Below, piece by piece: positions 1,436-31,998 of a stretch of 64,000 nucleotides of DNA. The notes below the pieces were generated by a model. It was not told the DNA's origin, did not search any database, and saw only the letters and a list, made by a program, of their open reading frames with translations. The stretch lies in IMG/VR virus record IMGVR_UViG_3300045988_061855. One strand, 5' to 3'. Source of the DNA: a virus. Both the position numbers and the translations under genes were made by a program. Every line of letters starts with the position of its first letter. Position 1 is the stretch's first letter.

Positions 1436-1462
1436 AAAAACATGCCCTTTAATGGGAGAAAG
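1436..1462 (+). promoter_or_regulatory. conserved early-region element, copy A
   Basis: aaaaacatgccctttaatgggagaaag. Confidence 0.5.
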
Positions 1463-1487
1463 AATAAAAGAAGCTTTCTCTTTTTTT
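1456..1487 (+). terminator. hairpin plus T7 run immediately after element A
   Basis: GAGAAAG (1456-1462) pairs with CTTTCTC (1474-1480), followed by TTTTTTT. Confidence 0.45.
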
Positions 1488-1562
1488 ATTTTCAGTACGA
1501 AGGTGACAGTAATATGTCTTATATTCGCATTGATGAAAGTTGAATAGAAAGGAGAGTTCAAA

Positions 1563-1799
1563 ATGGAAATGGCAGTTATATTAGCATTTATTCTTGGAGC
1601 TGCAATTGGTGTAGTTATGTCTGTTGTATTGGATAAAATCAGATGCAGTAATAGAGATGCGTACGGAATTTTCAAGATTAGACCCGTATCTGATGAAGAT
1701 GGCGACACCGGTTTATATTCAGTAAATGTTGCTATTGTACCTAACCAAGATTTGCTTAATAAGAAACGGATAATTCTGGTCAAGGATTCGCACAATTAA
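1563..1799 (+). CDS. small membrane protein
   Basis: 78 aa with an AAAGGAGAG RBS. The N-terminal TM is MEMAVILAFILGAAIGVVMSVVL. The FILGAA.G N-terminus is shared with ORF 9424..9957. Confidence 0.7.
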   Translation: MEMAVILAFILGAAIGVVMSVVLDKIRCSNRDAYGIFKIRPVSDEDGDTGLYSVNVAIVPNQDLLNKKRIILVKDSHN

Positions 1800-1839
1800 C
1801 AATTACTTTAATGACTATAAAATAAAGGAGGTCAATTCA

Positions 1840-2229
1840 ATGAACACAAGAAGTGTATTGGAAGATGAGATTGGACGAATCTCAGCAAAATTGAATGAAA
1901 TGGAGCCAGGTACCGAAGAGTATGAAAAGTTATCGAACCTACTCCACAAGTACATCGATAGGCGTACAGAACTTGAAAAAGCAGATTATGATGCTGACGA
2001 GAAAGCTCTTGCCAGGGAAGAGGGTAATGAGCTTAAGACTCAGCAACTTAATGAGGCTAAGAAAGATCGTATTACTAAAGTGGCTATGTGGGCTGTAGGT
2101 GGCATATCTGGAGGAGTTGTAAGTATTTGGGCTGCTCTTAAAGCGTTTAAATTTGATGGAGACGGACGAATATTCTCATCTACATTTGGACGAGACAGTG
2201 TTAAGAACTTGATTAAATTTAAGAAGTAG
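1840..2229 (+). CDS. coiled-coil protein with C-terminal TM anchor
   Basis: 129 aa with an AAAGGAGG RBS. It has a charged helical N-half and the TM segment VAMWAVGGISGGVVSIWAAL. Confidence 0.75.
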   Translation: MNTRSVLEDEIGRISAKLNEMEPGTEEYEKLSNLLHKYIDRRTELEKADYDADEKALAREEGNELKTQQLNEAKKDRITKVAMWAVGGISGGVVSIWAALKAFKFDGDGRIFSSTFGRDSVKNLIKFKK

Positions 2230-2242
2230 TTACATTTTAGGA

Positions 2243-2273
2243 GGCGCTAAGGAAACTTAGTGTCTTCTTTTTT
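2243..2273 (+). terminator. rho-independent terminator
   Basis: GGCGCTAAG-gaaa-CTTAGTGTC stem (with G-U pairs), then TTCTTTTTT. Confidence 0.6.
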
Positions 2274-2278
2274 CGTTT

Positions 2279-2309
2279 GAAAAACATATGCCTTTATGAA
2301 AGGAGAGTG
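2279..2309 (+). promoter_or_regulatory. conserved early-region element, copy B
   Basis: gaaaaacatatgcctttatgaaaggagagtg. CCTTT pairs with the SD AAAGG across a 3-nt loop. Confidence 0.5.
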
Positions 2310-2317
2310 ATATTTTT

Positions 2318-2536
2318 ATGACAATTATTCAATTAGATAAAAGTTTAGAAACAATACAATCACTGGATATAAACAAGTATAATAAAATATACTTCTTAAC
2401 TTTAGTGGAGTCTAAAACAAGGAGTGGTACAGATAATTACGTGTTTAGGTCCAAGCGATTAGATTATTTGATGTTTAATGAGCTTGAATCTTATTTGAAT
2501 AATCCAGAATACATTCTGGTAAGAATCGAAAAGTGA
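2318..2536 (+). CDS. hypothetical protein
   Basis: 72 aa; the RBS is embedded in element B. Confidence 0.65.
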   Translation: MTIIQLDKSLETIQSLDINKYNKIYFLTLVESKTRSGTDNYVFRSKRLDYLMFNELESYLNNPEYILVRIEK

Positions 2537-2553
2537 TTAAAAAATCAGAGACT

Positions 2554-2579
2554 GAGTCCTAACAAGGGCTCTTTCTTTT
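2554..2579 (+). terminator. rho-independent terminator (GAGTCCT-aaca-AGGGCTC family)
   Basis: Hairpin plus TTTCTTTT. The same hairpin recurs at 18258, 25914 and 30696. Confidence 0.7.
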
Positions 2580-2597
2580 AACTTAGGTGGTGAGCTG

Positions 2598-2957
2598 ATG
2601 AGATATCATTTTGATAAACCAGATATATATTATTCGTTATATGGGAAAAGATACATCTGTAATCATCCAGTATATAACGAATGTACATTATATAAGATTG
2701 ACGATAAAGGGTTAGCAGTTATACAGCAGCGGTATAATCCTGAAACGAAACATACATGGTGGACAGCTATAGACCCTTGGCTTACTGACCCGATATATTT
2801 GGATATTGGTTTTAAAAATCTATTTGATGCTCGTGCCGGGAAGTGTACGGACGGATTATATCCAACGATAACTGTAAGACAGCTCATGTGGGCACTCAAA
2901 ATGAAACCGATTCCAAGAGAGCGTTGGGAAACGTGCTTTGATAAACGAGATATTTAG
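2598..2957 (+). CDS. hypothetical protein
   Basis: 119 aa with an AGGTGGTGAG RBS. Confidence 0.7.
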   Translation: MRYHFDKPDIYYSLYGKRYICNHPVYNECTLYKIDDKGLAVIQQRYNPETKHTWWTAIDPWLTDPIYLDIGFKNLFDARAGKCTDGLYPTITVRQLMWALKMKPIPRERWETCFDKRDI

Positions 2958-2960
2958 CGT

Positions 2961-2987
2961 CATTTACATGTACTTTAATGAGATACA
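2961..2987 (+). promoter_or_regulatory. conserved early-region element, copy C
   Basis: catttacatgtactttaatgagataca. Confidence 0.45.
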
Positions 2988-3005
2988 TATAAGGAGGATA
3001 CTAAT

Positions 3006-3182
3006 ATGACTTGGAAGACTATTGAAGCAGCTAGGGAGATTAGACAATGGACGACTCAGATAGTAATACCGACAGTTGCAGTTGGTGTAGCTATTGCAGT
3101 TACTCCAGAGTTAAGAGAACCAGTTGTTGATACTTATAGGACAGTAAAAGAAAAAATTAAATCAAAGATATGTAGAAAGTAA
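3006..3182 (+). CDS. small membrane protein (58 aa)
   Basis: Hand-read: AAGGAGG RBS, MTWKTIEAAREIRQWTTQIVIPTVAVGVAIAVTPEL..., TAA at 3180. Confidence 0.6.
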   Translation: MTWKTIEAAREIRQWTTQIVIPTVAVGVAIAVTPELREPVVDTYRTVKEKIKSKICRK

Positions 3183-3188
3183 AGCAAA

Positions 3189-3223
3189 GGGCTTGAGTCT
3201 TAGGACTTGGGCTCTTTCTTTTT
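3189..3223 (+). terminator. rho-independent terminator (GGGCTTGAGTC-ttag-GACTTGGGCTC family)
   Basis: 11-bp stem with wobbles plus TTTCTTTTT. A near-identical ~40-nt copy occurs at 3749 and 28179. Confidence 0.7.
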
Positions 3224-3226
3224 CGT

Positions 3227-3256
3227 GTAAGAAACATGTTCCTTTATGAGAAAGTG
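3227..3256 (+). promoter_or_regulatory. conserved early-region element, copy D
   Basis: gtaagaaacatgttcctttatgagaaagtg. Confidence 0.5.
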
Positions 3257-3281
3257 ATGAAACATTAAGGAGGATTTCAAA

Positions 3282-3497
3282 ATGGAAAAAGAACAGAGAA
3301 CACAGAAGATTGACGAATTCTTGGAGAAATTTGATGAAATGATTAAGGCTGCTAATGCCATCGAAGATTTTAAATTTGAGATAGGTGTTACAATTCATAG
3401 TCGTGACAGCATGGTTTCTGATAGAGTACGGACAATTAACGGTATCAATGAAATATTTTCAAAGAATGATATGAAATGGTCATCATCAAATGCTTAA
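3282..3497 (+). CDS. hypothetical protein
   Basis: 71 aa with a TAAGGAGG RBS. Confidence 0.7.
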   Translation: MEKEQRTQKIDEFLEKFDEMIKAANAIEDFKFEIGVTIHSRDSMVSDRVRTINGINEIFSKNDMKWSSSNA

Positions 3498-3501
3498 GGT
3501 T

Positions 3502-3526
3502 GAGCCCGCAAGGGCTTTTCCTTTTT
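3502..3526 (+). terminator. rho-independent terminator
   Basis: GAGCCC-gcaa-GGGCTT plus TTCCTTTTT. Confidence 0.6.
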
Positions 3527-3530
3527 CGCA

Positions 3531-3560
3531 CGATATACAATCCCTTTAATGACTGAAAGT
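3531..3560 (+). promoter_or_regulatory. conserved early-region element, copy E
   Basis: cgatatacaatccctttaatgactgaaagt. Confidence 0.45.
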
Positions 3561-3575
3561 AATAAGGAGGTTGAA

Positions 3576-3740
3576 ATGATACTATTAATTATTTTGATAC
3601 TTATCGTTTTTATACTAACTACGGTTGTAGTGCTTAGTGTAAGTGCAATAGGCAGTGCAGCTATACTTATATTTGGGGACGTTATAGTATGTATTGGTTT
3701 TTTGGTATGGCTAATCAAAAAACTTGTTACTAAGGATTGA
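3576..3740 (+). CDS. very hydrophobic small membrane protein (54 aa)
   Basis: ATG at 3576 follows AAGGAGG. Translation is MILLIILILIVFILTTVVVLSVSAIGSAAILIFGDVIVCIGFLVWLI. Confidence 0.65.
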   Translation: MILLIILILIVFILTTVVVLSVSAIGSAAILIFGDVIVCIGFLVWLIKKLVTKD

Positions 3741-3748
3741 TGAAAGAA

Positions 3749-3783
3749 GGGCTTGAGTCTTAGGACTTGGGCTCTTTCTTTTT
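3749..3783 (+). terminator. rho-independent terminator (repeat of 3189..3223)
   Basis: Identical hairpin and T-run. Confidence 0.7.
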
Positions 3784-3787
3784 ATCC

Positions 3788-3815
3788 GCGTAAAAAACAA
3801 TTTATCTAATGAGAG
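3788..3815 (+). promoter_or_regulatory. conserved early-region element, copy F, abutting the tRNA-like gene
   Basis: gcgtaaaaaacaatttatctaatgagag. The tRNA acceptor stem starts at 3815. Confidence 0.5.
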
Positions 3816-3885
3816 AATAGGTAGCTCAGGTGGTAGAGCAGCAGATTTATTCTGCGGGCCATGGGTTCGAGTCCCATTCTATTCT
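3815..3885 (+). tRNA. tRNA-like gene with an aberrant anticodon arm (anticodon UUA if the loop is 7 nt)
   Basis: The acceptor stem GAATAGG/TCTATTC has 7 bp with one G-U. The D arm is GCTC-AGGTGGTA-GAGC and the T arm is ATGGG-TTCGAGT-CCCAT. The anticodon region GCAGATTTATTCTGC folds either as 5 bp plus a 5-nt loop or as 4 bp plus the loop ATTTATT. The gene is 71 nt with no encoded CCA. Confidence 0.6.
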
Positions 3886-3920
3886 CTTTTTTATTTTTTA
3901 TAATAAGGAGGATTTATAGC

Positions 3921-4697
3921 ATGAAGTCACATTACCGATGGAAATGCAAAACTGCTACTGTACTAACATTTATTGGTGCAGCTGGTGTAGTAGCAACAGC
4001 TGTAACAACAGCTAAACAGACACCTAAAGCTTTAAGATTGCTTAAGGAAGCTAGTGATGAGAAAGGAGAGGAACTTACATTTGCAGAAAAGGCAACAGCT
4101 ATGTTACCTGCATATTTGCCAGCCATAGTGACAGGCTCAGCGACTATTTTATGTATATTTGGCGCAAATATATTAAATAAAAGGAGCCAGGCAAGTTTAG
4201 TAAGTGCGTATGGATTATTAGACCAGAGATTCAAAGATTATAAGAGAAAACTTATTGAATTATACGGACAGGATGCTCATGAAAAGATAATCACTGAACT
4301 TGCAGCTGAGAAAGCAGAAAACCGATATATTTCTAGTTCATATCTCGGATGCAAATCTTGTGCATTATATTTAGACGAAAACGTTGGTAAGCCTGTATTA
4401 TTTTATGAACCGGTATCTGATAGGTATTTTGAAGCTACTGTTGAGCAGGTCATGAACGCTGAATATCATCTTAATAGGAACTTTGCTCTGGCTGGTGCAG
4501 CTTTGCTTAATGAGTTTTATGATTTTATTGGAATAGAAGAACGACCGGAATTAGATGAAATGGGATGGGCTCCAACTGATGAGGGCGAATTCTGGATTGA
4601 ATTCAATCACGTTCCAAAGGACCTTCCAGATGGCAGGAGATGCTACATAATCGACATGCCATTTGAACCAAGGGTTAATTTCGACGATTATGATTGA
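3921..4697 (+). CDS. two-TM membrane protein, paralog 1 of 3 (DUF6353-like, from memory)
   Basis: ATG at 3921 follows AAGGAGG, so the track start at 3861 overlaps the tRNA and was rejected. It shares TM1-TPKALRLL, TM2-KR..A...AY and a C-terminal MGW block with 5188..5958 and 7760..8725. Confidence 0.75.
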   Translation: MKSHYRWKCKTATVLTFIGAAGVVATAVTTAKQTPKALRLLKEASDEKGEELTFAEKATAMLPAYLPAIVTGSATILCIFGANILNKRSQASLVSAYGLLDQRFKDYKRKLIELYGQDAHEKIITELAAEKAENRYISSSYLGCKSCALYLDENVGKPVLFYEPVSDRYFEATVEQVMNAEYHLNRNFALAGAALLNEFYDFIGIEERPELDEMGWAPTDEGEFWIEFNHVPKDLPDGRRCYIIDMPFEPRVNFDDYD

Positions 4698-4742
4698 TTG
4701 TCGTGTCAAATACTTAGCCTATTATGGAAAGGAGGATTAATC

Positions 4743-4901: not shown

Positions 4902-4921
4902 CGGCGCCTCTTTTCTTTTTT
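4890..4921 (+). terminator. rho-independent terminator
   Basis: GAGGTTGCC-taac-GGCGCCTC plus TTTTCTTTTTTT. Confidence 0.65.
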
Positions 4922-4964
4922 TATGTAACACTAAAATATTTAATATCAAAAAGGAGAATTTACT

Positions 4965-5198
4965 ATGAACAACATTATTACAAACCCAACACAGAAAGAA
5001 TTTAATGAGGCAATGGACATCGTTAAGGATTATTTAAGAATTAATAAAATTCAGTTTATTGCTTTTGATGCGGAGAAGAATGCCATAGTAGCCGCAATTG
5101 GATTTGAAGATGCTATGAATAATAAGAAAGAAATATTTGGTGACAGGTATGTCAGCATGTTTGATAAGAAGTTAGAGGAGAAAAAGAATGAGAACTAA
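4965..5198 (+). CDS. hypothetical protein
   Basis: 77 aa with an AAAGGAG RBS. Confidence 0.7.
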   Translation: MNNIITNPTQKEFNEAMDIVKDYLRINKIQFIAFDAEKNAIVAAIGFEDAMNNKKEIFGDRYVSMFDKKLEEKKNEN

Positions 5199-5958
5199 TT
5201 TAGAAAAGATATTCAGACCCATAGCAAAACAGGTGTCAAAATATGGTCCTGAAATTGCTGTGGGTGTAGGTATTGCAGGAATGATTACGACAACTATTCT
5301 TGCTGTCAAAGCAACACCAAAAGCTTTGAAGTTAATAGATGAAGCTAAGAAAGAAGAAGCAGTTGAACTCAAACCTACAGAAGTTGTCAAGGTTGCATGG
5401 AAACCATATATTCCAGTGATGATTTCAGGAGCATTATCCATAGGTTGCATAGTTGGAGCGAGCACAGTTCATGTAAAAAGAAACGCTGCTCTTGCTACGG
5501 CATATCAGTTGGCGGCTAACACACTCAGTGACTATAAAGAGAAAGTTATAGAGACCATCGGTGAAGAAAAAGAAAAAGAAGTACAGAAGAAAGTAGATGC
5601 TAAGAAAGTAGAAAAAATTAGTTCTACTGAGCCATCTTTTGTACGTAAGGGAAAGCCTTTATGTATTGAACCGATATCTGGTCGTCCATTTGAAATGGAT
5701 TTGGAAGATGTCAAGGCCGCTATTAATAGACTCAATTATAGACTTACAGGTGGTATGGAAGAATGTATCTCTTTGTCAGAATGGTATGATGAGATTGGAT
5801 TAAAACATACCGATGTATCAGATTATATGGGTTGGAATATTTACAGTGACGGCTTAATTACAGTAACTGAAGTCCCAAGTTCAACAGATGATGGCGAATT
5901 ATGCTGGGTACTTGAGTATGCAGTATTACCACATTACAAGTATGAGAAAACGCGTTAA
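5188..5958 (+). CDS. two-TM membrane protein, paralog 2 of 3
   Basis: 256 aa. Contains KYGPEIAVGVGIAGMITTTILAVKATPKALKLIDEAKKE, a second TM, then AYQLAANTLSDYKEKV and MGWNIY. Confidence 0.8.
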   Translation: MRTNLEKIFRPIAKQVSKYGPEIAVGVGIAGMITTTILAVKATPKALKLIDEAKKEEAVELKPTEVVKVAWKPYIPVMISGALSIGCIVGASTVHVKRNAALATAYQLAANTLSDYKEKVIETIGEEKEKEVQKKVDAKKVEKISSTEPSFVRKGKPLCIEPISGRPFEMDLEDVKAAINRLNYRLTGGMEECISLSEWYDEIGLKHTDVSDYMGWNIYSDGLITVTEVPSSTDDGELCWVLEYAVLPHYKYEKTR

Positions 5959-5990
5959 AAACAACACCTTTAATGGATAAATACATATCC
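5951..5990 (+). promoter_or_regulatory. conserved early-region element, copy G
   Basis: cgcgttaaaaacaacacctttaatggataaatacatatcc, including a GGATA/TATCC hairpin. Confidence 0.45.
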
Positions 5991-7370: not shown

Positions 7371-7760
7371 ATGGCATACGTTAAAGAAAATGACACGATT
7401 CAGAATAGTAGTAATCCAATAAATAGAAATGGAATTTTAAGCAAAGCAGAGTCAATTATTAATGGTGAGCGTCAGGGAACATATGGTGATGCTGAAGATA
7501 GTTTTCAGACAATTGCAGATATGTGGAGTGCGTATCTGAACACAGAGATATCATCTGAAGATGTTGCTAATATGATGATTCTTATGAAAGTTGCTAGGAA
7601 TTCTAGTGGGGTTTACAAGGATGATAATTGGATTGATATTTGCGGTTATGCGGCATTGGGCGGAGAAATTCAGGCTGCTAAAAATGCAATTCATGTGCAG
7701 TTTGAAGAAAATAAAAAAATAACTGCATCTATTATTGATGGTTTGAAAGGAGATAAATAA
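7371..7760 (+). CDS. DUF6378-like protein (nucleotide-metabolism-associated phage domain; tentative)
   Basis: Contains RQGTYGDAEDSFQTIADMWSAYL...DVANMMILMKVARN...DICGYAALG. The pattern was recalled from memory. Confidence 0.5.
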   Translation: MAYVKENDTIQNSSNPINRNGILSKAESIINGERQGTYGDAEDSFQTIADMWSAYLNTEISSEDVANMMILMKVARNSSGVYKDDNWIDICGYAALGGEIQAAKNAIHVQFEENKKITASIIDGLKGDK

Positions 7761-8725
7761 TGTTTAATTTTAATAATATGGCTAACAAGGCTTCAAGAAT
7801 GTTAAATAAGGTAGGATTTCAGGTAAAGAAATATAGTCCTGAGATTCTTATATGTGCTGGTGTGATTGGTGTAGGTGCAAGTGGTGTAATGGCTTGCAGA
7901 GCGACAACAAAGCTAAGTGATATCATTGATAAGGCTAATGACGACATCATCAAGACTGATGAGGTTATAGCTAATCCTGATATGTTACCAGAGGGGTCAG
8001 AAGAGTATACAGAAGAAGATGCCACTAAGGATAAAGTAATAATCAGAGCGCATATGGTAATGGATATTGTAAAGCTGTATGCACCATCAGTTATATTAGG
8101 TGGATTATCACTCACAGCAATTCTTACATCTAACAATATTCTCAGGAAGAGAAATATTGCACTTGCAGCTGCTTATGCTTCAACTAACAAGACGCTTAAG
8201 GAATACAGACAGAGAGTTGTTGAGCGTTTTGGAGAAGATGTTGACAAACAGCTTAGATTTAATACAAAGCAGGAAGAAATTGAAGAAACTGTCATAGATG
8301 AGAAGACTGGCAAAGAGAAGAAAGTTAAGAAGACTATAGAAGTGTTTGACCCTAACACTCTTGGCGATTTTGCGGTTATATTTGATGAGTCTAATGTTAA
8401 CTGGAGTAAGACACCTGGCGCTAATAAAATGTTTCTTATTAATCAGCAGAGATATCTAAACGATAAGCTTAAGGCTAAAGGACGTTTATTTGTAAACGAC
8501 GTTAATGAAGCACTCGGATTCCCGTTGACAGCAGCTGGTCAGGTTGCTGGTTGGGTTTACGATGAGGAGCATCCTATAGGAGACAATTGTATTGATTTTG
8601 GATTGTTCGATTTAGACAATCCTAGAGCGGTAGATTTTGTCAATGGATATGAGCGAAGCATTATAATTGATTATAATTGTGATGGGAACATCTTGAAGTA
8701 TCTTGATGAGCCCAGGATTAGATAG
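7760..8725 (+). CDS. two-TM membrane protein, paralog 3 of 3 (longer C-terminal domain)
   Basis: 321 aa. Contains KYSPEILICAGVIGVGASGVMACRATTKL, a second TM, then RKRNIALAAAYASTNKTLKEYRQRV and GWVYDE. Confidence 0.8.
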   Translation: MFNFNNMANKASRMLNKVGFQVKKYSPEILICAGVIGVGASGVMACRATTKLSDIIDKANDDIIKTDEVIANPDMLPEGSEEYTEEDATKDKVIIRAHMVMDIVKLYAPSVILGGLSLTAILTSNNILRKRNIALAAAYASTNKTLKEYRQRVVERFGEDVDKQLRFNTKQEEIEETVIDEKTGKEKKVKKTIEVFDPNTLGDFAVIFDESNVNWSKTPGANKMFLINQQRYLNDKLKAKGRLFVNDVNEALGFPLTAAGQVAGWVYDEEHPIGDNCIDFGLFDLDNPRAVDFVNGYERSIIIDYNCDGNILKYLDEPRIR

Positions 8726-9423: not shown

Positions 9424-9957
9424 ATGAATAAGATTGATATGATATTTTCATTTATTCTTGGTGCCGCGGCAGGTTCTGTAGTCACCTGGGAAGTTGTAAA
9501 GTATAAATTTGATTTGGGTCCATACGAAGATATTATTGAAGAAGGCAGTTCTGAAAACTGTGAACTGACTAGCGTAGAAGGCATCGAAGGTGTAAAAAAA
9601 AACGCTAAAAATATAATAGAAACACAGGAGTATGTGGCTTATAACAAGAGCGAAGAAAAGGAGGAAGATGAAAGTATGAATAACACTGGACCATATGTGA
9701 TCACACCAGATGAATACGATTGCTCTGAATACGAGCCAACAACTCTTAATTATTATGCAGATGGTGTTCTTACAGATATCTACGATAATAAGATTGATGA
9801 CATTGATGAGATGGTTGGTCTTGAATCTTTAGAACATTTCGGTGAGTATGAAGACGATACCGTATATGTCAGAGATGATAGTAAAAAAGTTGACTATGAA
9901 ATTCTTCGAAATTCAGAAGAATATTATGATTTGTATCCAGATGAGAGGAATGTTTAA
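9424..9957 (+). CDS. membrane-anchored acidic protein
   Basis: 177 aa with an AAGGAG RBS. The N-terminal TM is IFSFILGAAAGSVVTW and the rest is acidic. Confidence 0.75.
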   Translation: MNKIDMIFSFILGAAAGSVVTWEVVKYKFDLGPYEDIIEEGSSENCELTSVEGIEGVKKNAKNIIETQEYVAYNKSEEKEEDESMNNTGPYVITPDEYDCSEYEPTTLNYYADGVLTDIYDNKIDDIDEMVGLESLEHFGEYEDDTVYVRDDSKKVDYEILRNSEEYYDLYPDERNV

Positions 9958-10502
9958 TGAATATAGATGAAATAAACGATGAATACTTTGCATGGCTGAG
10001 CGATAAAGTTTGCAAGGGTAGATTTTCCAAGGATGTTTCATATTCTGAATTATTACATGCGTTGCATAAAACAGAATTTAGGTGGAGGATGAGTAATGAC
10101 ACTAATCGTGCATCTGATGGTCTTATGCTTCGTCGTAGATTCGCATCATTCATGGGATTTGAAGAGGATTATTTCTTACCATATATAACAGGACCTTGTA
10201 CTGTATTGGAGATGATGATTGCACTTGCAATCAGATGTGAAGTAAGTATTATGGACAACCCAAAAGTTGGGGATAGAACTGCGCAGTGGTTTTGGGAAAT
10301 GATAAACAACATGGAACTTGGTGGTATGTATAATAATAACTTCGACAAGCGATATGTAAATGATGTCATTGATAGATTCATTGATAGGGAATACTCGCCA
10401 AACGGTAAAGGTGGATTGTTTTATATCAGGGATTGCAAATGTGATTTAGCAATGGTTGAGATATGGGACCAGATGTGTTGGTATCTTAACGGTATATCTT
10501 AG
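9957..10502 (+). CDS. conserved hypothetical phage protein
   Basis: 181 aa with ATGA start/stop overlap to the preceding gene. Confidence 0.75.
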   Translation: MNIDEINDEYFAWLSDKVCKGRFSKDVSYSELLHALHKTEFRWRMSNDTNRASDGLMLRRRFASFMGFEEDYFLPYITGPCTVLEMMIALAIRCEVSIMDNPKVGDRTAQWFWEMINNMELGGMYNNNFDKRYVNDVIDRFIDREYSPNGKGGLFYIRDCKCDLAMVEIWDQMCWYLNGIS

Positions 10503-14665: not shown

Positions 14666-14670
14666 TGTTC

Positions 14671-14706
14671 GCTTGAAAAACACGGCATGTTATGGATAAA
14701 CATATC
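14671..14706 (+). promoter_or_regulatory. conserved early-region element, copy H
   Basis: gcttgaaaaacacggcatgttatggataaacatatc. Confidence 0.45.
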
Positions 14707-17287: not shown

Positions 17288-17425
17288 ATGATATTGATAC
17301 TATTTGGAATAATTGTGGTCTTGGCGATTGGAACGGTACTCAATATTATATTTGCAGTTAACGAACCAGACGATGATATTCGCGATGAGAACGACTCCTT
17401 TAATGAGAATAAAACAAAGGAGTGA
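17288..17425 (+). CDS. small membrane peptide (45 aa)
   Basis: Hand-read: MILILFGIIVVLAIGTVLNIIFAV.... Its 3' end contains element I. Confidence 0.45.
   Translation: MILILFGIIVVLAIGTVLNIIFAVNEPDDDIRDENDSFNENKTKE
17391..17420 (+). promoter_or_regulatory. conserved early-region element, copy I
   Basis: acgactcctttaatgagaataaaacaaagg. The upstream half is weak. Confidence 0.35.
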
Positions 17426-17430
17426 TTTAT

Positions 17431-17691
17431 ATGTGCGAGTATGAAATTATATTTTGTAAGGCGTTACATGAGAAATTAAAAGAAAAAGTAAAAGGCGGAC
17501 TCTGGGTAAGGGTTAAAAATGACGATTGTTTATGGATTGATATTGTTCAGCGAGAACTTAATACAATAACACATATACAAATTGGCAATCCTTTTTCAGA
17601 ATTAATCGTTAAAGGCTTTTCTGTTGATGAGGCATGTGAGGAGGTTATAAAACAGTACAGACGGATAATATTAAGCCGTTGTTTTAAGTAA
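17431..17691 (+). CDS. hypothetical protein
   Basis: ATG at 17431 follows AAAGGAGTG. Confidence 0.7.
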   Translation: MCEYEIIFCKALHEKLKEKVKGGLWVRVKNDDCLWIDIVQRELNTITHIQIGNPFSELIVKGFSVDEACEEVIKQYRRIILSRCFK

Positions 17692-18094: not shown

Positions 18095-18097
18095 TGG

Positions 18098-18135
18098 TCG
18101 TGTAATTTACAAGTACTATTATGAAAGGAGTGTGA
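18098..18135 (+). promoter_or_regulatory. conserved early-region element, copy P
   Basis: tcgtgtaatttacaagtactattatgaaaggagtgtga. Confidence 0.5.
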
Positions 18136-18257: not shown

Positions 18258-18286
18258 AGAGTCCTAACAAGGGCTCTTTCTTTTTT
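18258..18286 (+). terminator. rho-independent terminator (GAGTCCT-aaca-AGGGCTC family)
   Basis: Same hairpin plus TTTCTTTTTTT. Confidence 0.7.
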
Positions 18287-20222: not shown

Positions 20223-20228
20223 AATAGC

Positions 20229-20267
20229 TCGCGTGTTTCACGCACTCTGTAATGAGAAAGGAGAGTG
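20229..20267 (+). promoter_or_regulatory. conserved early-region element, copy J
   Basis: tcgcgtgtttcacgcactctgtaatgagaaaggagagtg. It contains a GCGTG-ttt-CACGC hairpin and a CACTCT/AGAGTG pairing over the SD. Confidence 0.45.
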
Positions 20268-21772: not shown

Positions 21773-22735
21773 ATGAGTAAAGAATACGATTTATATTTAG
21801 AACAGCATAGAGCTAACGTAGCTAAAGGATTCTATTGGATTCAGGAAAATCTACCAGAGTTATTGATAGACATCCCTAATGTATCATATGAACATCAGAT
21901 TTGTTATTCTCACGATAATTCTAAGGACGATAGTGCAGAATACAAAGCATATGATGCTTATTTTTATGGGAGAAACAGGTCTTTTCAAGTTGTGCAGGAT
22001 TTCCAGTATGCATGGCTTACACATATTCATAAAAATCCACATCATTGGCAGCATTGGATTCTTGTTCATGATGATATCAAGAATGGAAAGTTAGAGACAA
22101 TCCTTGAGATACCATATAATTATATTATAGAAATGATTTGCGATTGGTGGGCTTTTAGTTGGGCTCGCAGCAATTTATATGAGATATTCAACTGGTATGA
22201 TGAGCATTCAAAAAATATGAAACTTGCGCCAGAAACCAGAACAACTGTTGAAAGCATTCTGAATAAGATAAAAAATACGCTTGATAACTCAGAGATTATT
22301 CACAGTGGAGTTAAGGGGATGAAATGGGGTGTTAAAAACGGTCCACCATATCCGATAAAATATAACGGACGAGTTGCAGCTATACAGAAACGTGATAGAA
22401 TAGTAGAAAATGCTATTAAATCCGGAGAAGTAATAAAAACTATAAATAGAGATAAACAGGAACGTCATAATAAAACACAACACATTCCAGGAAGAAGTTA
22501 TCTAAATGGTGATACAGAATATGCACAGAAATTAGTGAATAAATACAGTGGGACTGGTGAATCAAAACTTGATCATCATGGTAAATGGAATCATCGAGAA
22601 CGAATATTCGCGGATGAGGATATTGGTATGTATGTGGATGATCAAGGTACAGAAATACCATCGAATGTTGGAATGATAGTATATTCTAATACTGGAACAC
22701 ATATTTATCCGGCACGAAGAAAGGAGAACAAATAA
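21773..22735 (+). CDS. three-part protein: DUF5662-like His-rich N-domain, HxGxxGxKWG motif, and a C-terminal domain resembling MuF-associated polymorphic-toxin modules
   Basis: The N-domain has YSHDNSK..EYKAYDAYFYGRNRS...AWLTHIHKNPHHWQHW. The WG motif is IIHSGVKGMKWGVKNGPPYP at aa 184-203. The C-terminal domain has QHIPGRSYLNGD..KYSGTGE...IVYSNTGTHIYPARR. Confidence 0.55.
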   Translation: MSKEYDLYLEQHRANVAKGFYWIQENLPELLIDIPNVSYEHQICYSHDNSKDDSAEYKAYDAYFYGRNRSFQVVQDFQYAWLTHIHKNPHHWQHWILVHDDIKNGKLETILEIPYNYIIEMICDWWAFSWARSNLYEIFNWYDEHSKNMKLAPETRTTVESILNKIKNTLDNSEIIHSGVKGMKWGVKNGPPYPIKYNGRVAAIQKRDRIVENAIKSGEVIKTINRDKQERHNKTQHIPGRSYLNGDTEYAQKLVNKYSGTGESKLDHHGKWNHRERIFADEDIGMYVDDQGTEIPSNVGMIVYSNTGTHIYPARRKENK

Positions 22736-25639: not shown

Positions 25640-25686
25640 AGTTCTTTCTGCCAATGAAACACTTTGCCTAGTTATTGCTAGGGGTC

Positions 25687-25721
25687 ACGCTAAATTTACA
25701 TCTCCTATAATGAAAGGAGTG
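25687..25721 (+). promoter_or_regulatory. conserved early-region element, copy K (inside the intron)
   Basis: acgctaaatttacatctcctataatgaaaggagtg. Confidence 0.45.
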
Positions 25722-25727: not shown

Positions 25728-25922
25728 ATGATAGCTAGAATGGCATTAACAATCAACATTAATTCCAAAAAAGGCAAATATTTTGTGAAGCAGATGTTAC
25801 CTAAATGTAAACATATGGTAACTATCAGATCAAGCAAAGTCTTAGATGGATATACTGATTATATAATGGACATTGAAGATTATTATATAGCACAAGAATT
25901 ATTAGAAAAGATTGAGTCCTAA
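25728..25922 (+). CDS. intron-borne hypothetical protein (64 aa)
   Basis: ATG at 25728 follows AAAGGAGTG. No homing-endonuclease motifs are visible. Confidence 0.55.
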   Translation: MIARMALTININSKKGKYFVKQMLPKCKHMVTIRSSKVLDGYTDYIMDIEDYYIAQELLEKIES

Positions 25923-25940
25923 CATGGGCTCTTTCTTTTT
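25914..25940 (+). terminator. rho-independent terminator (GAGTCCT-aaca-TGGGCTC)
   Basis: The hairpin overlaps the stop codon of 25728..25922. Confidence 0.6.
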
Positions 25941-26296
25941 ATATTTTAGCGTGGCTAACGGGGAACCACCCATTGGAATCCCGTGGGAAACATTTCAAAG
26001 ATATATTTTCGCGAAAATTACATGGTGTATTATGAGAGAATAAGGCCCGTGGAATTAAAAATATTAACCACAATTCTAGGGTGACTAGTAACGGTGGAGA
26101 TTCTATTAGAATCGTAGTTAGGCAAGATCCTTATTCTTTTTTGTTTTTATTTCTTTTATATTTTTGAAATGAACCTGTAGAGGCTATCCCCTATGCCTTC
26201 CGGGCGGGGGAGTAGGGCTACTATTGATACGTAGCTGGGTTTTAGGAAACGAAGCCCATGAAAACCGAAATGGTGTCCTATTGTTTTTTGTGTGTT

Positions 26297-26333
26297 AGCG
26301 AGATTTACAACTCCTTTTATGAAAGGATGGTGA
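26297..26333 (+). promoter_or_regulatory. conserved early-region element, copy L (inside the intron)
   Basis: agcgagatttacaactccttttatgaaaggatggtga. Confidence 0.45.
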
Positions 26334-27562: not shown

Positions 27563-27919
27563 ATGACAACGCACAATAAATATGACAATGATATTTTAAA
27601 GCAACTTACAAGGATTGCTAACGCTTTAGACAGGATAGCTAAGAGATTACCAGAAGAATGTGATACAGCTGAGTACGCAAAAGAGAATCCAGATTGGACT
27701 GAGAAAATTGAAAAGATGGCTTCTGGTTATTATTTACAGGTAATAAGATGTAAAGACTGTAAATGCTTCATACCATTGGAAGATATGAAAAAATGCCCGG
27801 AATACAAGGATTACCCATTTGATGCAGCAGAAAAAGTACATTCTGATGGTATATGTACAAATACTGATAAATGGGTTTACACAAGTGATTTCTGTAGTGA
27901 GGCTAAAAACTCGCAGTAA
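27563..27919 (+). CDS. Cys-rich hypothetical protein
   Basis: 118 aa, following the conserved TAAGGAGGATTTTACATTATG region. Confidence 0.75.
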   Translation: MTTHNKYDNDILKQLTRIANALDRIAKRLPEECDTAEYAKENPDWTEKIEKMASGYYLQVIRCKDCKCFIPLEDMKKCPEYKDYPFDAAEKVHSDGICTNTDKWVYTSDFCSEAKNSQ

Positions 27920-27945
27920 AAACATGTTCCTTAATGAGTAAATTA
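27911..27945 (+). promoter_or_regulatory. conserved early-region element, copy M
   Basis: tcgcagtaaaaacatgttccttaatgagtaaatta; overlaps the upstream stop codon. Confidence 0.5.
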
Positions 27946-28161: not shown

Positions 28162-28178
28162 TAATTTATTAAAGCAAA

Positions 28179-28212
28179 GGGCTTGAGTCTTAGGACTTAG
28201 GCTCTTATTTTT
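28179..28212 (+). terminator. rho-independent terminator (third copy of the 3189 hairpin)
   Basis: aaagcaaagggcttgagtcttaggactt is shared with 3181-3208. Confidence 0.7.
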
Positions 28213-29026: not shown

Positions 29027-29044
29027 TAAGAAAGGATATTAACT

Positions 29045-29185: not shown

Positions 29186-29189
29186 TGTT

Positions 29190-29552: not shown

Positions 29553-29556
29553 TGTT

Positions 29557-29778: not shown

Positions 29779-30023
29779 TGATATGCGATTGGAATGAAGT
29801 ATTTAACCCTACTCCTGAACAGAAAAAATATTATGAAGACGAATATAAAAAACTATTACAAAGCGCATATGACGAGCATAAATGTTTTACATGTAGACAT
29901 TATATTTCTGATGAACCTGAGCGAGACTTTATTCAACCTTGTCCAACATGTGAGATTACTGGTCATGCTGCTATTACAACTTGTGATAAATATGAGAGCA
30001 ACGGTAAGGAGGAAATACATTGA
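29778..30023 (+). CDS. Cys-rich hypothetical protein
   Basis: 81 aa with CFTC...CPTC motifs. Confidence 0.65.
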   Translation: MICDWNEVFNPTPEQKKYYEDEYKKLLQSAYDEHKCFTCRHYISDEPERDFIQPCPTCEITGHAAITTCDKYESNGKEEIH

Positions 30024-30134
30024 AAGAGAAGCTTAATTTATATTTTACAGTAAAGGCTTTGAAATATCGTTTTGAGCCTGCTGGGTTTAGATATCGTTTG
30101 TACTCTTGGCTTGTCAGAAAGACTGACTAACATA

Positions 30135-30166
30135 CGCGACATATACTTATTATATTATGAGAAAAT
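30135..30166 (+). promoter_or_regulatory. conserved early-region element, copy U (divergent)
   Basis: cgcgacatatacttattatattatgagaaaat. Confidence 0.35.
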
Positions 30167-30185
30167 AATAAGGAGGATTTATATT

Positions 30186-30326
30186 ATGCTTACATTTATG
30201 TTTGATAGTGTTGAAGAATTAGTTAAATTCAGGGAGGAATGTATTGAAAAATACAATGAGGTTCCTAGAATTTCAGCGGTTTTTCATGGCAACGAACATA
30301 CATATTTTGCAAGGGTTAATATGTAG
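30186..30326 (+). CDS. small hypothetical protein (46 aa)
   Basis: ATG at 30186 follows the conserved AAGGAGGATTTATATTATG region. Confidence 0.55.
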   Translation: MLTFMFDSVEELVKFREECIEKYNEVPRISAVFHGNEHTYFARVNM

Positions 30327-30390
30327 TAATTATTAAAAGAAATGTTCTTGGCATTTGCTGAGGCTTTTCTTTTTGCTCTGTCGGATATGG

Positions 30391-30428
30391 TCGTGTGAGA
30401 TACATAGTGTGTTATGGAAAGGATGGTG
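30391..30428 (+). promoter_or_regulatory. conserved early-region element, copy N
   Basis: tcgtgtgagatacatagtgtgttatggaaaggatggtg. Confidence 0.4.
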
Positions 30429-30434
30429 ATATTT

Positions 30435-30704
30435 ATGACGGATATTGAAAAGCAAATAGAGGCTATGGGATACGAAGTTCGTGTTAGTGACATGTCTAAT
30501 GAGTATATTGTTTATGAGAATAAAAAAAGTGATCAAGAAGTAACCTTAGAATGGGATTACGAAGATCAGTATTGTATGATACATTCGCAAACAATATCAA
30601 GAGAAAAAGATTGGATAGGACAGACACATCAAATGCCTATGCCATTAACTATTTGTGAAGCTGAAATATTTATGGCTAGACTTAAAGAATTACGAGAGTC
30701 CTAA
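30435..30704 (+). CDS. hypothetical protein (89 aa)
   Basis: ATG at 30435. The C-terminal ...RES* is encoded by the terminator hairpin. Confidence 0.65.
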   Translation: MTDIEKQIEAMGYEVRVSDMSNEYIVYENKKSDQEVTLEWDYEDQYCMIHSQTISREKDWIGQTHQMPMPLTICEAEIFMARLKELRES

Positions 30705-30723
30705 CAAGGGCTCTTTCTTTTTT
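30696..30723 (+). terminator. rho-independent terminator (GAGTCCT-aaca-AGGGCTC family)
   Basis: Overlaps the stop codon; followed by TTTCTTTTTT. Confidence 0.7.
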
Positions 30724-30739
30724 ATATTTAGGAGGGTTT

Positions 30740-30922
30740 ATGAATATAGTTAGTGGATATTGGAAGAGTATTGATGGCTCCGTTACGTACGGATATTGCA
30801 CTTGTGGTAGAGAGGTAAAATCTACCAAAGAGGAAAGAGATGAAAAATGTCCTATGTGTGGAGCAAAAATTGTGTGGGATTTGGGTAATCCTGAGTTATG
30901 GATTGGACAGAAAAAGCAGTGA
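30740..30922 (+). CDS. zinc-ribbon protein
   Basis: 60 aa with CTCG...CPMCG. Confidence 0.65.
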   Translation: MNIVSGYWKSIDGSVTYGYCTCGREVKSTKEERDEKCPMCGAKIVWDLGNPELWIGQKKQ

Positions 30923-30930
30923 TTTTATGG

Positions 30931-30946
30931 GTAACCAATTGGTTAC
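30931..30946 (+). promoter_or_regulatory. operator O1, perfect 16-bp palindrome
   Basis: GTAACCAATTGGTTAC. Confidence 0.6.
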
Positions 30947-31012
30947 AGGTATGCTTTTTTGAAGATTTTTTATATGATTTTATATTTTTGAAAAATTGCA
31001 TTTTTGACTGGT

Positions 31013-31028
31013 GTAACCGTTTGGTTAC
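31013..31028 (+). promoter_or_regulatory. operator O2
   Basis: GTAACCGTTTGGTTAC. Confidence 0.6.
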
Positions 31029-31055
31029 TCGATGGTATTTATTATGATACAAAAA

Positions 31056-31112
31056 GGCTAAAAAACGGCTATTTTTGGTCATTTTTGGCTATATTTTGCC
31101 CATTTTTGGCTA
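31056..31112 (+). repeat. phased T-tract/GGCTA direct repeats (period ~10-11 bp)
   Basis: GGCTAaaaaacGGCTAtttttGGTCAtttttGGCTAtattttGCCCAtttttGGCTA. Confidence 0.6.
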
Positions 31113-31136
31113 ACATCGCATAATTAATACCAAAGT

Positions 31137-31153
31137 GTTAACCGACTGGTTAC
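31137..31153 (+). promoter_or_regulatory. operator O3 (imperfect)
   Basis: GTTAACCGACTGGTTAC. Confidence 0.5.
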
Positions 31154-31207
31154 ACCCCCTTATTACATAATAAAAAAATTAAATATATTAAAGGACTTTT
31201 TGCAGGT

Positions 31208-31223
31208 GTAACCAATTGGTTAA
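31208..31223 (+). promoter_or_regulatory. operator O4, ~40 nt upstream of the XRE gene start
   Basis: GTAACCAATTGGTTAA. Confidence 0.55.
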
Positions 31224-31260
31224 TACCCCTTTATTTTTAGCACAAAGAAAGGAGCATGTT

Positions 31261-31509
31261 ATGCATAACAACGAATACATAAGTGAAGTCGAGTTTATAG
31301 ATATCTTTGCAGATAACTTAAGAGATATTATGTATGAAATGGATATAAGCGAAGGAGAGTTAGCAAGAAGGACTGGGTTATCCAAAATGGCAATCAGTAG
31401 ATATCTTAATAAAAAAAGAATGCCAACATTAAAAGCGCTGGTAAATCTATCATATGTACTCTGTGTACCGATAACTGATTTAATACCAACATATGCAATG
31501 ATTGATTAG
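31261..31509 (+). CDS. XRE-family HTH transcriptional regulator
   Basis: ATG at 31261 follows AAAGGAG. Contains ELARRTGLSKMAISRYLNKKRMPTLKALVNLSYVLCVPITDLI. Confidence 0.8.
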   Translation: MHNNEYISEVEFIDIFADNLRDIMYEMDISEGELARRTGLSKMAISRYLNKKRMPTLKALVNLSYVLCVPITDLIPTYAMID

Positions 31510-31534
31510 AAGATATAATGGAGGATTTATATTT

Positions 31535-31897
31535 ATGAAAAATAATGTAAGGGTGGGAATACTAGAAACCGGTCAAGTATTTGATTCTATAACGGCGTGT
31601 GCCAATTATATTGGAGGGAATGCAAGACATGCCAGTATTGTGAGTCGGAATCCGAGAATGACTTGCAAAGGCTATCATATAGTTCGAATAGATGAACCAA
31701 TTCCTGAAATTGATCTATCGAGAAGTTTTGTCGGACGACCTGGAATTCGTGTAAGGATTGTTGAGACAGGCGATGAATTCGATTCAATCAAAGAGTGTGC
31801 AGAATTTATGAATTGTAGTAGTGGGAGAATACATGATGCTCTTACAGGTTACAATAATATTCATACATATAACGGTTATCATTTTACATATGTGTGA
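31535..31897 (+). CDS. DNA-binding protein with two tandem IENR1/NUMOD-like repeats and no nuclease domain
   Basis: Repeat 1 is VGILETGQVFDSITACANYIGGNARHASIV...KGYHIVRI. Repeat 2 is VRIVETGDEFDSIKECAEFMNCSSGRIHDAL...NGYHFTYV. Confidence 0.55.
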   Translation: MKNNVRVGILETGQVFDSITACANYIGGNARHASIVSRNPRMTCKGYHIVRIDEPIPEIDLSRSFVGRPGIRVRIVETGDEFDSIKECAEFMNCSSGRIHDALTGYNNIHTYNGYHFTYV

Positions 31898-31908
31898 TTT
31901 ATATTTAT

Positions 31909-31944
31909 GGGCTTTAGTGTGACAAACTAAGGCTCTTATTTTTT
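31909..31944 (+). terminator. rho-independent terminator
   Basis: GGGCTTTAGT-N7-ACTAAGGCTC plus TTATTTTTT. Confidence 0.65.
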
Positions 31945-31963
31945 GCTTATGGTATTAATTATG

Positions 31964-31998
31964 CGAGCGTAAAAAACATGCCCTTTTATAGGAGAGAT
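31964..31998 (+). promoter_or_regulatory. conserved early-region element, copy O (last copy)
   Basis: cgagcgtaaaaaacatgcccttttataggagagat. Confidence 0.5.

Follow-up and report, generated by a model that had tools for sequence, protein, structure and literature searches.

A conserved 30-base element in the non-structural half of a phage genome is the likely promoter of a phage-encoded two-barrel RNA polymerase

A 64,000-nucleotide stretch of viral DNA (IMG/VR record IMGVR_UViG_3300045988_061855; here called the window, at its full length) carries 20 copies of an element of approximately 30 bases on its + strand, all of them between positions 1428 and 31993. We consider it likely that these elements are promoters and that they are recognized by a single-chain, two-barrel RNA polymerase that the phage itself encodes, a 963-amino-acid protein whose gene lies downstream of the last copy. 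On the best reading, this protein is a polymerase of the Lactococcus phage 1706 and FP_oengus type and a distant relative of YonO and the QDE-1-like polymerases. An initial annotation of the window had proposed that the elements were single-block promoters for a phage RNA polymerase and not sigma-A promoters, and this proposal is supported by the geometry of the element, by constraints on where transcripts could start, by the co-occurrence of element and polymerase gene across two bacterial phyla, and by features of the polymerase itself.

The copies were found with a weight matrix made from 15 hand-aligned copies and applied to both strands of the whole window. The 20 sites scored from 16.3 to 36.0 bits, while the runner-up on either strand reached 9.2 bits, and the structural half from 32 to 64 kb contained no site on either strand. 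Five of the copies (named here by the position of the C of their CG box: 2956, 4702, 26297, 30135, and 31966) were outside the training set, and the leave-one-out scores of the 15 training copies ranged from 16.7 to 33.2. When the matrix was rebuilt from all 20 copies and applied to 20 mononucleotide shuffles of the window, the best score per shuffle had a mean of 12.0 and a maximum of 18.8. Seventeen copies, with 24 bits or more on the scale of the original matrix, are far above this range and are genuine beyond doubt. The other three (4702, 30135, and 31966, at 16 to 19 bits) are borderline by score alone and rest on their context: each is intergenic and 5' of a ribosome-binding site, and 31966 has positional counterparts before the exonuclease-polymerase operon in scaffold MT835495 and in FP_oengus. 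The scan bore out the earlier count of at least 17 copies, their confinement to the + strand between 1.4 and 32.0 kb (20 of 20), and the lack of a convincing copy between 32 and 64 kb. The label "early half" that had been given to this region held for placement in the non-structural half, with "early" itself an assumption, as replication genes and the polymerase operon are also served. The statement that most copies sit just after a terminator did not hold, as a crude hairpin scan found one immediately 5' of only 6 of the 20 copies.

The copies were aligned and numbered with the G of an invariant ATG as position 0 (G0). The element consists of TTCGCR (-26 to -21), AAWWACA (-18 to -12), and CTWTWATG (-7 to 0), followed by purines, and its spacing is invariant: CG, 9 nucleotides, CA, 8 nucleotides, T.AT. 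The two upstream boxes, TTCGCR and AAWWACA, are one helical turn apart. A logo pooled from 169 distinct instances in the window phage and its relatives showed one contiguous conserved block from -26 to +3, with G at -23 in 100%, C at -13 in 99%, and T at -4, A at -2, T at -1, and G0 in 99% each; position +1 was a purine in 100%, and +2 to +6 were purine rich. The variable spacer of 3 to 6 nucleotides described initially is absent from this alignment, in which the spacing is fixed, and the 3' block given as TTWAATGAGAAA was not enriched (6 found versus 3.5 expected with one mismatch allowed); the true block is TWTWATGR plus purines. The putative promoter copies, and the genes and RNAs linked to them that are discussed below, are as follows, with scores from the original matrix.

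1428 to 1457, + strand: promoter copy 1 (CG-box C 1430, G0 1454; 36.0 bits), followed by a promoter-proximal hairpin and T-run
1787 to 1816, + strand: promoter copy 2 (CG-box C 1789, G0 1813; 29.8 bits), before a gene starting at 1840
2272 to 2301, + strand: promoter copy 3 (CG-box C 2274, G0 2298; 28.7 bits), with a 13-bp terminator 5 nucleotides upstream and a Shine-Dalgarno sequence at +4
2954 to 2983, + strand: promoter copy 4 (CG-box C 2956, G0 2980; 24.0 bits), an untrained copy in which the CG box is AGCG
3222 to 3251, + strand: promoter copy 5 (CG-box C 3224, G0 3248; 33.2 bits), with a 14-bp terminator upstream
3525 to 3554, + strand: promoter copy 6 (CG-box C 3527, G0 3551; 32.5 bits)
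3785 to 3814, + strand: promoter copy 7 (CG-box C 3787, G0 3811; 28.4 bits), fused to a tRNA-like gene
3815 to 3886, + strand: tRNA-like gene with anticodon TTA, behind copy 7 (ARAGORN; Rfam tRNA model, 56.2 bits over the full model)
4700 to 4729, + strand: promoter copy 8, weak and untrained (CG-box C 4702, G0 4726; 19.0 bits), with ACT for ACA and a Shine-Dalgarno sequence at +3
5949 to 5978, + strand: promoter copy 9 (CG-box C 5951, G0 5975; 27.6 bits), the last before the 6.0- to 14.7-kb block with the DNA polymerase gene
14668 to 14697, + strand: promoter copy 10 (CG-box C 14670, G0 14694; 29.7 bits)
17379 to 17408, + strand: promoter copy 11 (CG-box C 17381, G0 17405; 29.2 bits)
18097 to 18126, + strand: promoter copy 12 (CG-box C 18099, G0 18123; 27.7 bits), with AAAGGAG immediately 3' of the ATG
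20228 to 20257, + strand: promoter copy 13 (CG-box C 20230, G0 20254; 26.7 bits), with a Shine-Dalgarno sequence at +4 and a one-off GCGTG-ttt-CACGC palindrome
25686 to 25715, + strand: promoter copy 14 (CG-box C 25688, G0 25712; 28.1 bits), with a Shine-Dalgarno sequence at +2
26008 to 26037, + strand: promoter copy 15 (CG-box C 26010, G0 26034; 29.5 bits), upstream of a candidate small RNA
26034 to 26142, + strand: candidate small RNA of approximately 105 nucleotides, with a 12-bp closing stem from G0 and then a U-run (fold -26.1 kcal/mol, z = -2.1)
26295 to 26324, + strand: promoter copy 16, untrained (CG-box C 26297, G0 26321; 27.6 bits), with a Shine-Dalgarno sequence at +2
27910 to 27939, + strand: promoter copy 17 (CG-box C 27912, G0 27936; 32.1 bits)
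30133 to 30162, + strand: promoter copy 18, the weakest (CG-box C 30135, G0 30159; 16.3 bits), intergenic and before a ribosome-binding site
30390 to 30419, + strand: promoter copy 19 (CG-box C 30392, G0 30416; 24.4 bits), with a Shine-Dalgarno sequence at +3
31964 to 31993, + strand: promoter copy 20 (CG-box C 31966, with A at position 0; 18.9 bits), followed by a hairpin and T-run and then the exonuclease-polymerase operon
32922 to 35813, + strand: 963-amino-acid putative two-barrel RNA polymerase with helix-turn-helix domains at both ends (phrog_4291, E = 0; GADFDGD at residues 533 to 539)

The element travels with the polymerase gene. Among deposited phage genomes, 251 carry an orthologue of the 963-amino-acid protein (phages of Arthrobacter, Gordonia, Streptomyces, Lactococcus, Faecalibacterium, and others), and at least 8000 protein clusters from metagenomes also contain orthologues. 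Four isolated phages, each with a polymerase orthologue, were inspected across their non-structural regions and gave the following versions of the element, listed with the guanine-plus-cytosine (G+C) content of each genome.

FP_oengus (Faecalibacterium), G+C 48%: consensus gaCGCGAAAAAtnCAnnnnnCTTTATGGaag; 14 copies on the + strand, 0 on the - strand
CapnMurica (Arthrobacter), G+C 49%: consensus cTCGCAaGAATTACAnnnnnTTATAATGAgAAG; at least 8 copies, + strand only, with a 3' box that is exactly TATAAT
1706 (Lactococcus), G+C 33%: consensus ttCRCAtGTTTTACAtannCTATAGTAGAAAG; 12 to 13 copies on the + strand, 0 on the - strand, all between 24.0 and 46.5 kb
Scap1 (Streptomyces), G+C 61%: consensus CTCGCAAGTTTTACAnnnnnTATAGTGAGACCCCTAC; 4 copies, + strand only

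All five lineages share the same CG-to-CA and CA-to-T.AT distances. At 23 IMG/VR loci from metagenomic relatives of the window phage, found through their DUF6353 gene, there were 5 to 14 copies each on the coding strand and no more than one on the opposite strand. The phage collection contained no DNA-level relative of the window; its closest deposited relative, MT835495, consists of the late half of a phage plus approximately 30 kb of sequence with 50% G+C and has two promoter copies. Two negative controls were used, one of them host matched. In Lactococcus phage TP901-1, which shares its host with 1706 and has no such polymerase annotated, the best site reached no more than 10.4 bits against a threshold of 12, and the non-phage 30 kb of MT835495 had no motif site. 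The motif was therefore present with the polymerase in five host lineages and absent from both controls. Because its sequence and spacing are kept across two phyla and from 33 to 61% G+C, a reader carried by the phages themselves is a simpler explanation than recognition by varied host machineries.

The candidate for this reader, the 963-amino-acid protein, matches phrog_4291 from end to end. Its GADFDGD loop is invariant among the orthologues and is the catalytic-loop motif of the beta' subunits of multisubunit polymerases. Of six orthologues compared with Pfam, four matched RdRP (PF05183; best E = 7e-5), all six matched Sigma70_r4 or r4_2 (best 5e-8), and all six matched HTH_23; the N-terminal helix-turn-helix of the window protein resembles sigma region 4. 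A single-sequence search of the PDB with the polymerase gave no match, and a six-sequence profile gave helix-turn-helix matches and, apart from these, only a nonsignificant alignment of the GADFDGD segment with a phage beta' subunit (E = 0.35). Neither this protein nor the early open reading frames (ORFs) showed a T7-type RNA polymerase domain with Pfam or PHROG, and among the approximately 70 early-half ORFs Pfam found no sigma factor, MotA or AsiA homologue, or other specificity factor. A preprint (10.1101/842583) describes an RdRP match by HHpred with 95.7% probability, as well as a helix-turn-helix domain at each end, and the 1706 protein has been placed among the YonO-like two-barrel polymerases (PMC2919709). 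Together, these features indicate that the 963-amino-acid protein is plausibly an RNA polymerase. Its orthologue in phage 1706, orf75, was labeled "structural protein" by the depositors, which is compatible with delivery of the polymerase in the virion. The label recurs in the ReqiPoco6 record, in which such labels reportedly derive from mass spectrometry of virions.

Three independent constraints, all read from sequence, imply that transcripts must begin at approximately G0. The tRNA-like gene behind copy 7 has its 5' end at +4, and the corresponding ends are at +1 in FP_oengus and at +2 in eight metagenomic loci; a strong terminator (3746 to 3777) lies just 5' of copy 7. A start 6 to 8 nucleotides past the TWTWAT hexamer would be unlikely here because the acceptor stem of the tRNA-like gene would be cut into. 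The adjacency of copy 7 to this gene had been pointed out initially as an exact abutment; the adjacency stands, but the invariant G is 4 nucleotides from the 5' end (3811 to 3815). The next constraint comes from ribosome-binding sites. A Shine-Dalgarno core starts at +2 to +4 in six window copies as scored by a script, and by eye in copy 18099 as well; a Shine-Dalgarno-like core was present at +1 to +5 in 37 of the 169 pooled instances, and in phage 1706 AGAAAGAAGG directly follows the box in at least 7 copies. Finally, copy 15 has no ORF downstream but a sequence of approximately 105 nucleotides that, in the RNA fold, is closed by a 12-bp stem running from G0 to a U-run. This sequence is a candidate small RNA, for which the z score of -2.1 against shuffles is suggestive only, and it had no match in Rfam.

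Two further observations concern the sequences just downstream of the elements. The TTA anticodon of the tRNA-like gene would read UAA stop codons, and relatives have, at the same place before a DUF6353 gene, tRNA-like genes with abnormal anticodon loops (ARAGORN "gaaa" or "ga"). These genes (window, 3815 to 3886; locus L003, 2935 to 3006; loci L017 to L024, for example, L019 at 9930 to 10004) are each joined directly to a promoter copy and finish with a T-run, no CCA being encoded; the product may not be a decoding tRNA. In addition, across -12 to +15 of the 169 instances, the spacer and CCTTT are often complementary to the downstream Shine-Dalgarno sequence, as for ACTCCTTT...AAAGGAGT at 17395 to 17432 and CTCCT...AGGAG at 25702 to 25719. 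Such pairing could mask the ribosome-binding site in read-through transcripts, while locally started transcripts would be free of the masking strand.

We propose that the polymerase binds approximately 30 bp of duplex DNA, with TTCGCR (near -24) and AAWWACA (near -14) probably read by the conserved helix-turn-helix domains. This pairing is suggested by the equal number, two, of DNA-binding domains and of upstream boxes, the boxes being one helical turn apart. The AT-rich TWTWAT segment would then melt, and RNA would start at or beside the invariant G, giving transcripts that begin with GAGAAA or a similar sequence. Each copy would head a short unit made up of the promoter, a Shine-Dalgarno sequence, and either a small RNA or between one and a few small genes, often closed by a hairpin terminator. 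Jointly, the copies would serve all of the non-structural half, with the replication genes and the polymerase operon among their targets. Because every non-structural unit, including the exonuclease-polymerase operon behind copy 20, has the same class of promoter, the first polymerase molecules would need a separate source. One such source could be host transcription of the operator-rich region at 30.9 to 31.2 kb, a route that would be needed because the phage is most likely a prophage; on infection, the protein could instead be carried in the virion.

The main rival to reading by the phage polymerase is use of the elements by the host RNA polymerase, an explanation that we regard as unlikely. 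TWTWAT would then be a -10 hexamer, and the upstream boxes would either be bound by a phage factor, in a sigma appropriation like that by MotA of T4, or constitute a degenerate, short-spaced -35. The 3' box does resemble TATAAT, and is exactly that in CapnMurica, and the positions corresponding to T-12 and T-7 are conserved in the 169-instance logo, with T in 99% at the would-be -7. At the would-be -11, however, A (72 of the 169 instances) is outnumbered by T (88) and is missing from all of the FP_oengus CTTTAT/CCTTAT copies. TTCGCR, the only -35-like hexamer, is 14 bp from TWTWAT in every copy and not 16 to 18, which agrees with the poor sigma-A fit and short hexamer spacing noted in the initial annotation. 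Copy 4702 scored as TTGTCG-16-TATTAT in a sigma-70 scan, but only two of the listed sigma-70-type sites overlapped a copy, and of these only 4702 used the TWTWAT hexamer of the element; such sites occurred at chance frequency in the two halves of the window (80 versus 84.8 expected and 104 versus 91.1 expected). With a start 6 to 8 nucleotides downstream of the hexamer, three lineages would lose part of the acceptor stem of the tRNA-like gene, and many genes part of their Shine-Dalgarno sequence. Conservation at G0 and +1 exceeds that of any sigma-70 discriminator, which is not conserved in this way; a conserved stretch that continues across the start site is the usual picture for promoters of phage-encoded polymerases such as those of T7 and SP6 and not for sigma-70 promoters. 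Genes of this kind of region are classically transcribed by the host, and host-type terminators, hairpins with T-runs, follow many of the units, but the same boxes occur in phages of two phyla with 33 to 61% G+C, and the Pfam search of the early ORFs found no sigma or MotA-like factor.

It is improbable that the elements are repeats other than promoters, such as operators for a phage repressor or activator, or boundaries of mobile cassettes (terminator plus repeat) like the promoter-early stem-loop (PeSL) repeats of T4-type phages. This explanation would account for the near-identical terminator-plus-element duplicates at 3186 to 3251 and 3746 to 3814, for the many small genes without known function that are flanked by elements, and for the partly palindromic TTCGCG and the over-representation of hairpins centered at -22/-23. 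It fits poorly with the strict co-orientation of elements and genes, with their fixed position just 5' of Shine-Dalgarno sequences or small-RNA 5' ends, and with the order of an AT-rich segment and then a conserved purine start. The elements are also kept in phages with no integrase in their record (1706 and Scap1), and a lysogeny operator is unlikely in 1706 because the original paper on this phage calls it virulent in its title. A role as cassette boundary is compatible with promoter function and does not replace it. Even less probable are promoters of the N4 type, in which the polymerase would recognize an extruded DNA hairpin rather than duplex sequence, a likeness that had been suggested initially. 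A few copies do form 5-bp hairpins (CCTTT-atg-AAAGG at 2290 to 2302 and GCGTG-ttt-CACGC at 20232 to 20244), and hairpins of at least 5 bp were mildly enriched, in 79 of the 169 instances versus 60 +/- 7 in column-permuted controls. Their centers, however, were scattered (-23/-22, approximately 0, +3, and +8) and were near -12 in only 9 of the 169; the clusters are explained by a T-run/CGCG/A-run palindrome and by the pairing of CCTTT with an adjacent AAAGG Shine-Dalgarno sequence, and the conserved boxes are not self-complementary. The hairpins cited in support of the N4 likeness were either one-offs or instances of this CCTTT/AAAGG pairing, and the N4-like hairpin promoter was rejected since no stem lies at a fixed distance upstream of the start.

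Several points weigh against promoters read by the phage polymerase. Its gene is downstream of all the copies and behind one of them, and the separate route to the first polymerase molecules that this requires is only guessed. The similarity of the 3' box to TATAAT, exact in the Arthrobacter phage, means that host holoenzyme might use some copies. The early transcripts made by gp66, a related polymerase of the crAss-like phage phi14:2, share no detectable upstream motif, and a sequence-specific promoter is thus not a given for this class of enzyme. All of the start-site arguments are indirect, and the tRNA-like RNA could in principle be cut from read-through transcripts. As for the protein, we infer that it is a DNA-dependent transcriptase; the 963-amino-acid sequence of the window itself had no Pfam RdRP match at E <= 5, and an AlphaFold model made from 20 sequences of approximately 72% identity was too poor for a test of the fold, with a predicted local distance difference test (pLDDT) score of 58.7 that fell below 50 in the catalytic core.

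The proposed promoters have much in common with those of T7 and SP6, which likewise form one block of approximately 25 to 30 bp reaching up to the start, with a TATA-like segment, a G at +1, and a purine-rich transcript start, and which occur in many copies per genome, all co-oriented with the genes. The Scap1 version CTATAGTGAGA and the 1706 version CTATAGTAGAAAG resemble the T7 promoter CTATAGGGAGA and the SP6 promoter CTATAGAAGA. The polymerase here is unrelated, however, having a two-barrel GADFDGD core and no T7-type domain, and the block reaches to -26 and is split into two boxes one helical turn apart. The middle promoters of T4 combine a MotA box at -30 with a sigma-70 -10 element through sigma appropriation, and they too have a phage-specific box near -25/-30 in place of a -35; the start implied here is 0 to 1 nucleotide from the TATAAT-like box, however, and not 6 to 8. 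The PeSL repeats of T4-type phages are spread by recombination, and the units described here, a putative promoter plus a stem-loop, may resemble them in bracketing many small genes and could promote cassette shuffling. N4 virion RNA polymerase also has phage-specific promoters for genes that precede the structural ones and, possibly, resembles the enzyme here in being virion borne, but the window has no fixed-position hairpin and its polymerase is of another family and size.

The nearest parallels are other single-chain, two-barrel phage polymerases. Those of P23-45 have, to our knowledge, no fused sigma-4-like helix-turn-helix domains. In that system, start mapping by ONT-cappable-seq and chromatin immunoprecipitation sequencing (ChIP-seq) identified AT-rich and GC-rich promoter classes for two enzymes, with the motif present in relatives carrying the polymerase and absent from those without it (10.1101/2022.12.01.518664). 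The present case likewise joins a conserved motif to such a polymerase and uses the same logic of co-occurrence, but the polymerase is of another lineage, and the starts that were mapped in P23-45 are inferred in the window phage. The distantly related gp66 of phi14:2 is a virion-packaged enzyme responsible for the early genes, with transcription of the middle and late genes left to the host polymerase at sigma-70-like promoters. A sigma-70-like site likewise precedes the late operon of the window, and the 1706 orthologue is labeled structural; by this analogy, a late operon with no motif but with a sigma-70-like site would fit the phi14:2 pattern of phage polymerase early and host polymerase later. 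Unlike the early transcripts of gp66, for which no common motif was detected, the non-structural genes here are served by a strong motif. YonO of SPbeta, also a distant relative, transcribes late genes, and its promoter is undefined. The element would be the counterpart promoter for a fourth lineage of two-barrel polymerases, one with fused helix-turn-helix domains.

A broader proposal, which we hold with evenly balanced confidence, is that siphoviruses of Firmicutes and Actinobacteria share a self-contained system in which a two-barrel polymerase with a built-in sigma-region-4-like helix-turn-helix reads a duplex promoter of approximately 30 bp (TTCGCR, N2, AAWWACA, N4, CTWTWATG, purines) and starts at the G; this polymerase may respond to its own terminator hairpin (with a CCUAACAAGG loop) and may be delivered by the virion. 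If so, the lineage of this polymerase would gain its first defined promoter, with sigma-like promoter reading fused into a minimal two-barrel polymerase whose helix-turn-helix domains replace a sigma factor. It would explain how a 30-kb block of genes is silenced or switched on through one enzyme and would provide a compact, orthogonal polymerase-promoter pair for Gram-positive hosts. The cross-phylum consensus and predicted start site make what the enzyme reads a question that can be tested at the bench. No description of the motif was found in the literature searched, which did not include the original 1706 paper; that literature contained nothing joining phage 1706, promoter, and RNA polymerase and nothing on promoters of the Arthrobacter relatives.

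The window is a siphovirus-type phage genome with a G+C content of approximately 35%, nearly all of its genes on the + strand, and strong Shine-Dalgarno sequences. From 1 to 32 kb it encodes small genes without known function, three DUF6353 paralogues, a 1380-amino-acid primase-polymerase, a helicase, and a single-stranded-DNA-binding protein. A Cas4-like exonuclease and the 963-amino-acid protein follow at 32.4 to 35.8 kb, then a cos-like site at approximately 36.11 to 36.15 kb and the terminase, portal, head, and tail genes. At NCBI, a 99%-identical copy of the 963-amino-acid protein is labeled Lachnospira eligens and is carried on contigs of 212 to 601 kb, on which the gene order across the cos site matches that of the window. 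Because of this near-identical protein in the same gene order on such large contigs, the window is most likely a prophage of the gut Firmicute Lachnospira eligens. The cos-like site, GGGGGGTCT...CCCCCTCCCATCATCGCGCCGGTCT (in the region 36105 to 36230), is similar to the right-hand genome ends of CapnMurica and 1706, and the window continues across the virion ends, as a prophage or a circular assembly would be expected to do. Just 3' of it, ahead of the late operon, is the sigma-70-like TTTAGA-17-TATAAT (36199 to 36227), and no diverged copy of the motif was found upstream of this operon at 36.15 to 36.39 kb. Between 30.94 and 31.21 kb, four GTAACCnnnTGGTTAC palindromes and five TTTTTGGCTA direct repeats precede an XRE-type helix-turn-helix gene (31216 to 31509), and the equivalent regions before the polymerase operon in FP_oengus, 1706, and Scap1 have repeat arrays of differing sequence. 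The repeat region (30940 to 31215) may be a genetic switch or a replication origin.

Hairpins and terminators accompany the elements at several places. A hairpin and T-run occur 10 to 60 nucleotides after the first and last promoter copies and before any gene (1456 to 1493 and 31994 to 32070). FP_oengus and MT835495 have counterparts of the hairpin ahead of the exonuclease-polymerase operon, and this hairpin may be an attenuator that limits expression of the polymerase. Terminators of the form GAGTCC-TAACAA-GGGCTC plus T-run are found in the window at 2554 to 2571, 18258 to 18277, 25914 to 25931, and 30694 to 30715, with further sites at L004 (10816) and L035 (23375, 24030, and 27173); the same CCCTAACAAGGG hairpin is present in Arthrobacter and Streptomyces phages. 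Conservation of the loop across phyla is unexpected for a plain intrinsic terminator, and it may act as a cue for the phage polymerase in particular or as a place of RNA processing. Three near-identical terminators of approximately 32 nucleotides, AAGGGCTTGAGTCTTAGGACTTGGGCTCTT, lie at 3186 to 3217, 3746 to 3777, and 28177 to 28206, and a promoter copy comes directly after two of them. They have the appearance of duplicated terminator-promoter cassettes, which could support recombination between small-gene units. Several small ORFs between 1.4 and 6 kb have a hairpin-plus-element unit in front of them.

The sole convincing - strand gene (1163 to 1339; 58 amino acids, with a good Shine-Dalgarno sequence) diverges from copy 1 across a 90-bp gap that contains a - strand sigma-70-like TTTACT-18-TATAAT; in FP_oengus, the equivalent position is occupied by an integrase. 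The three DUF6353 paralogues (3861 to 4697, 5188 to 5958, and 7760 to 8725) are in the promoter-dense region, and FP_oengus also has three. A gene at 21773 to 22735 encodes a 320-amino-acid protein with DUF5662 and an Ntox50 toxin domain.

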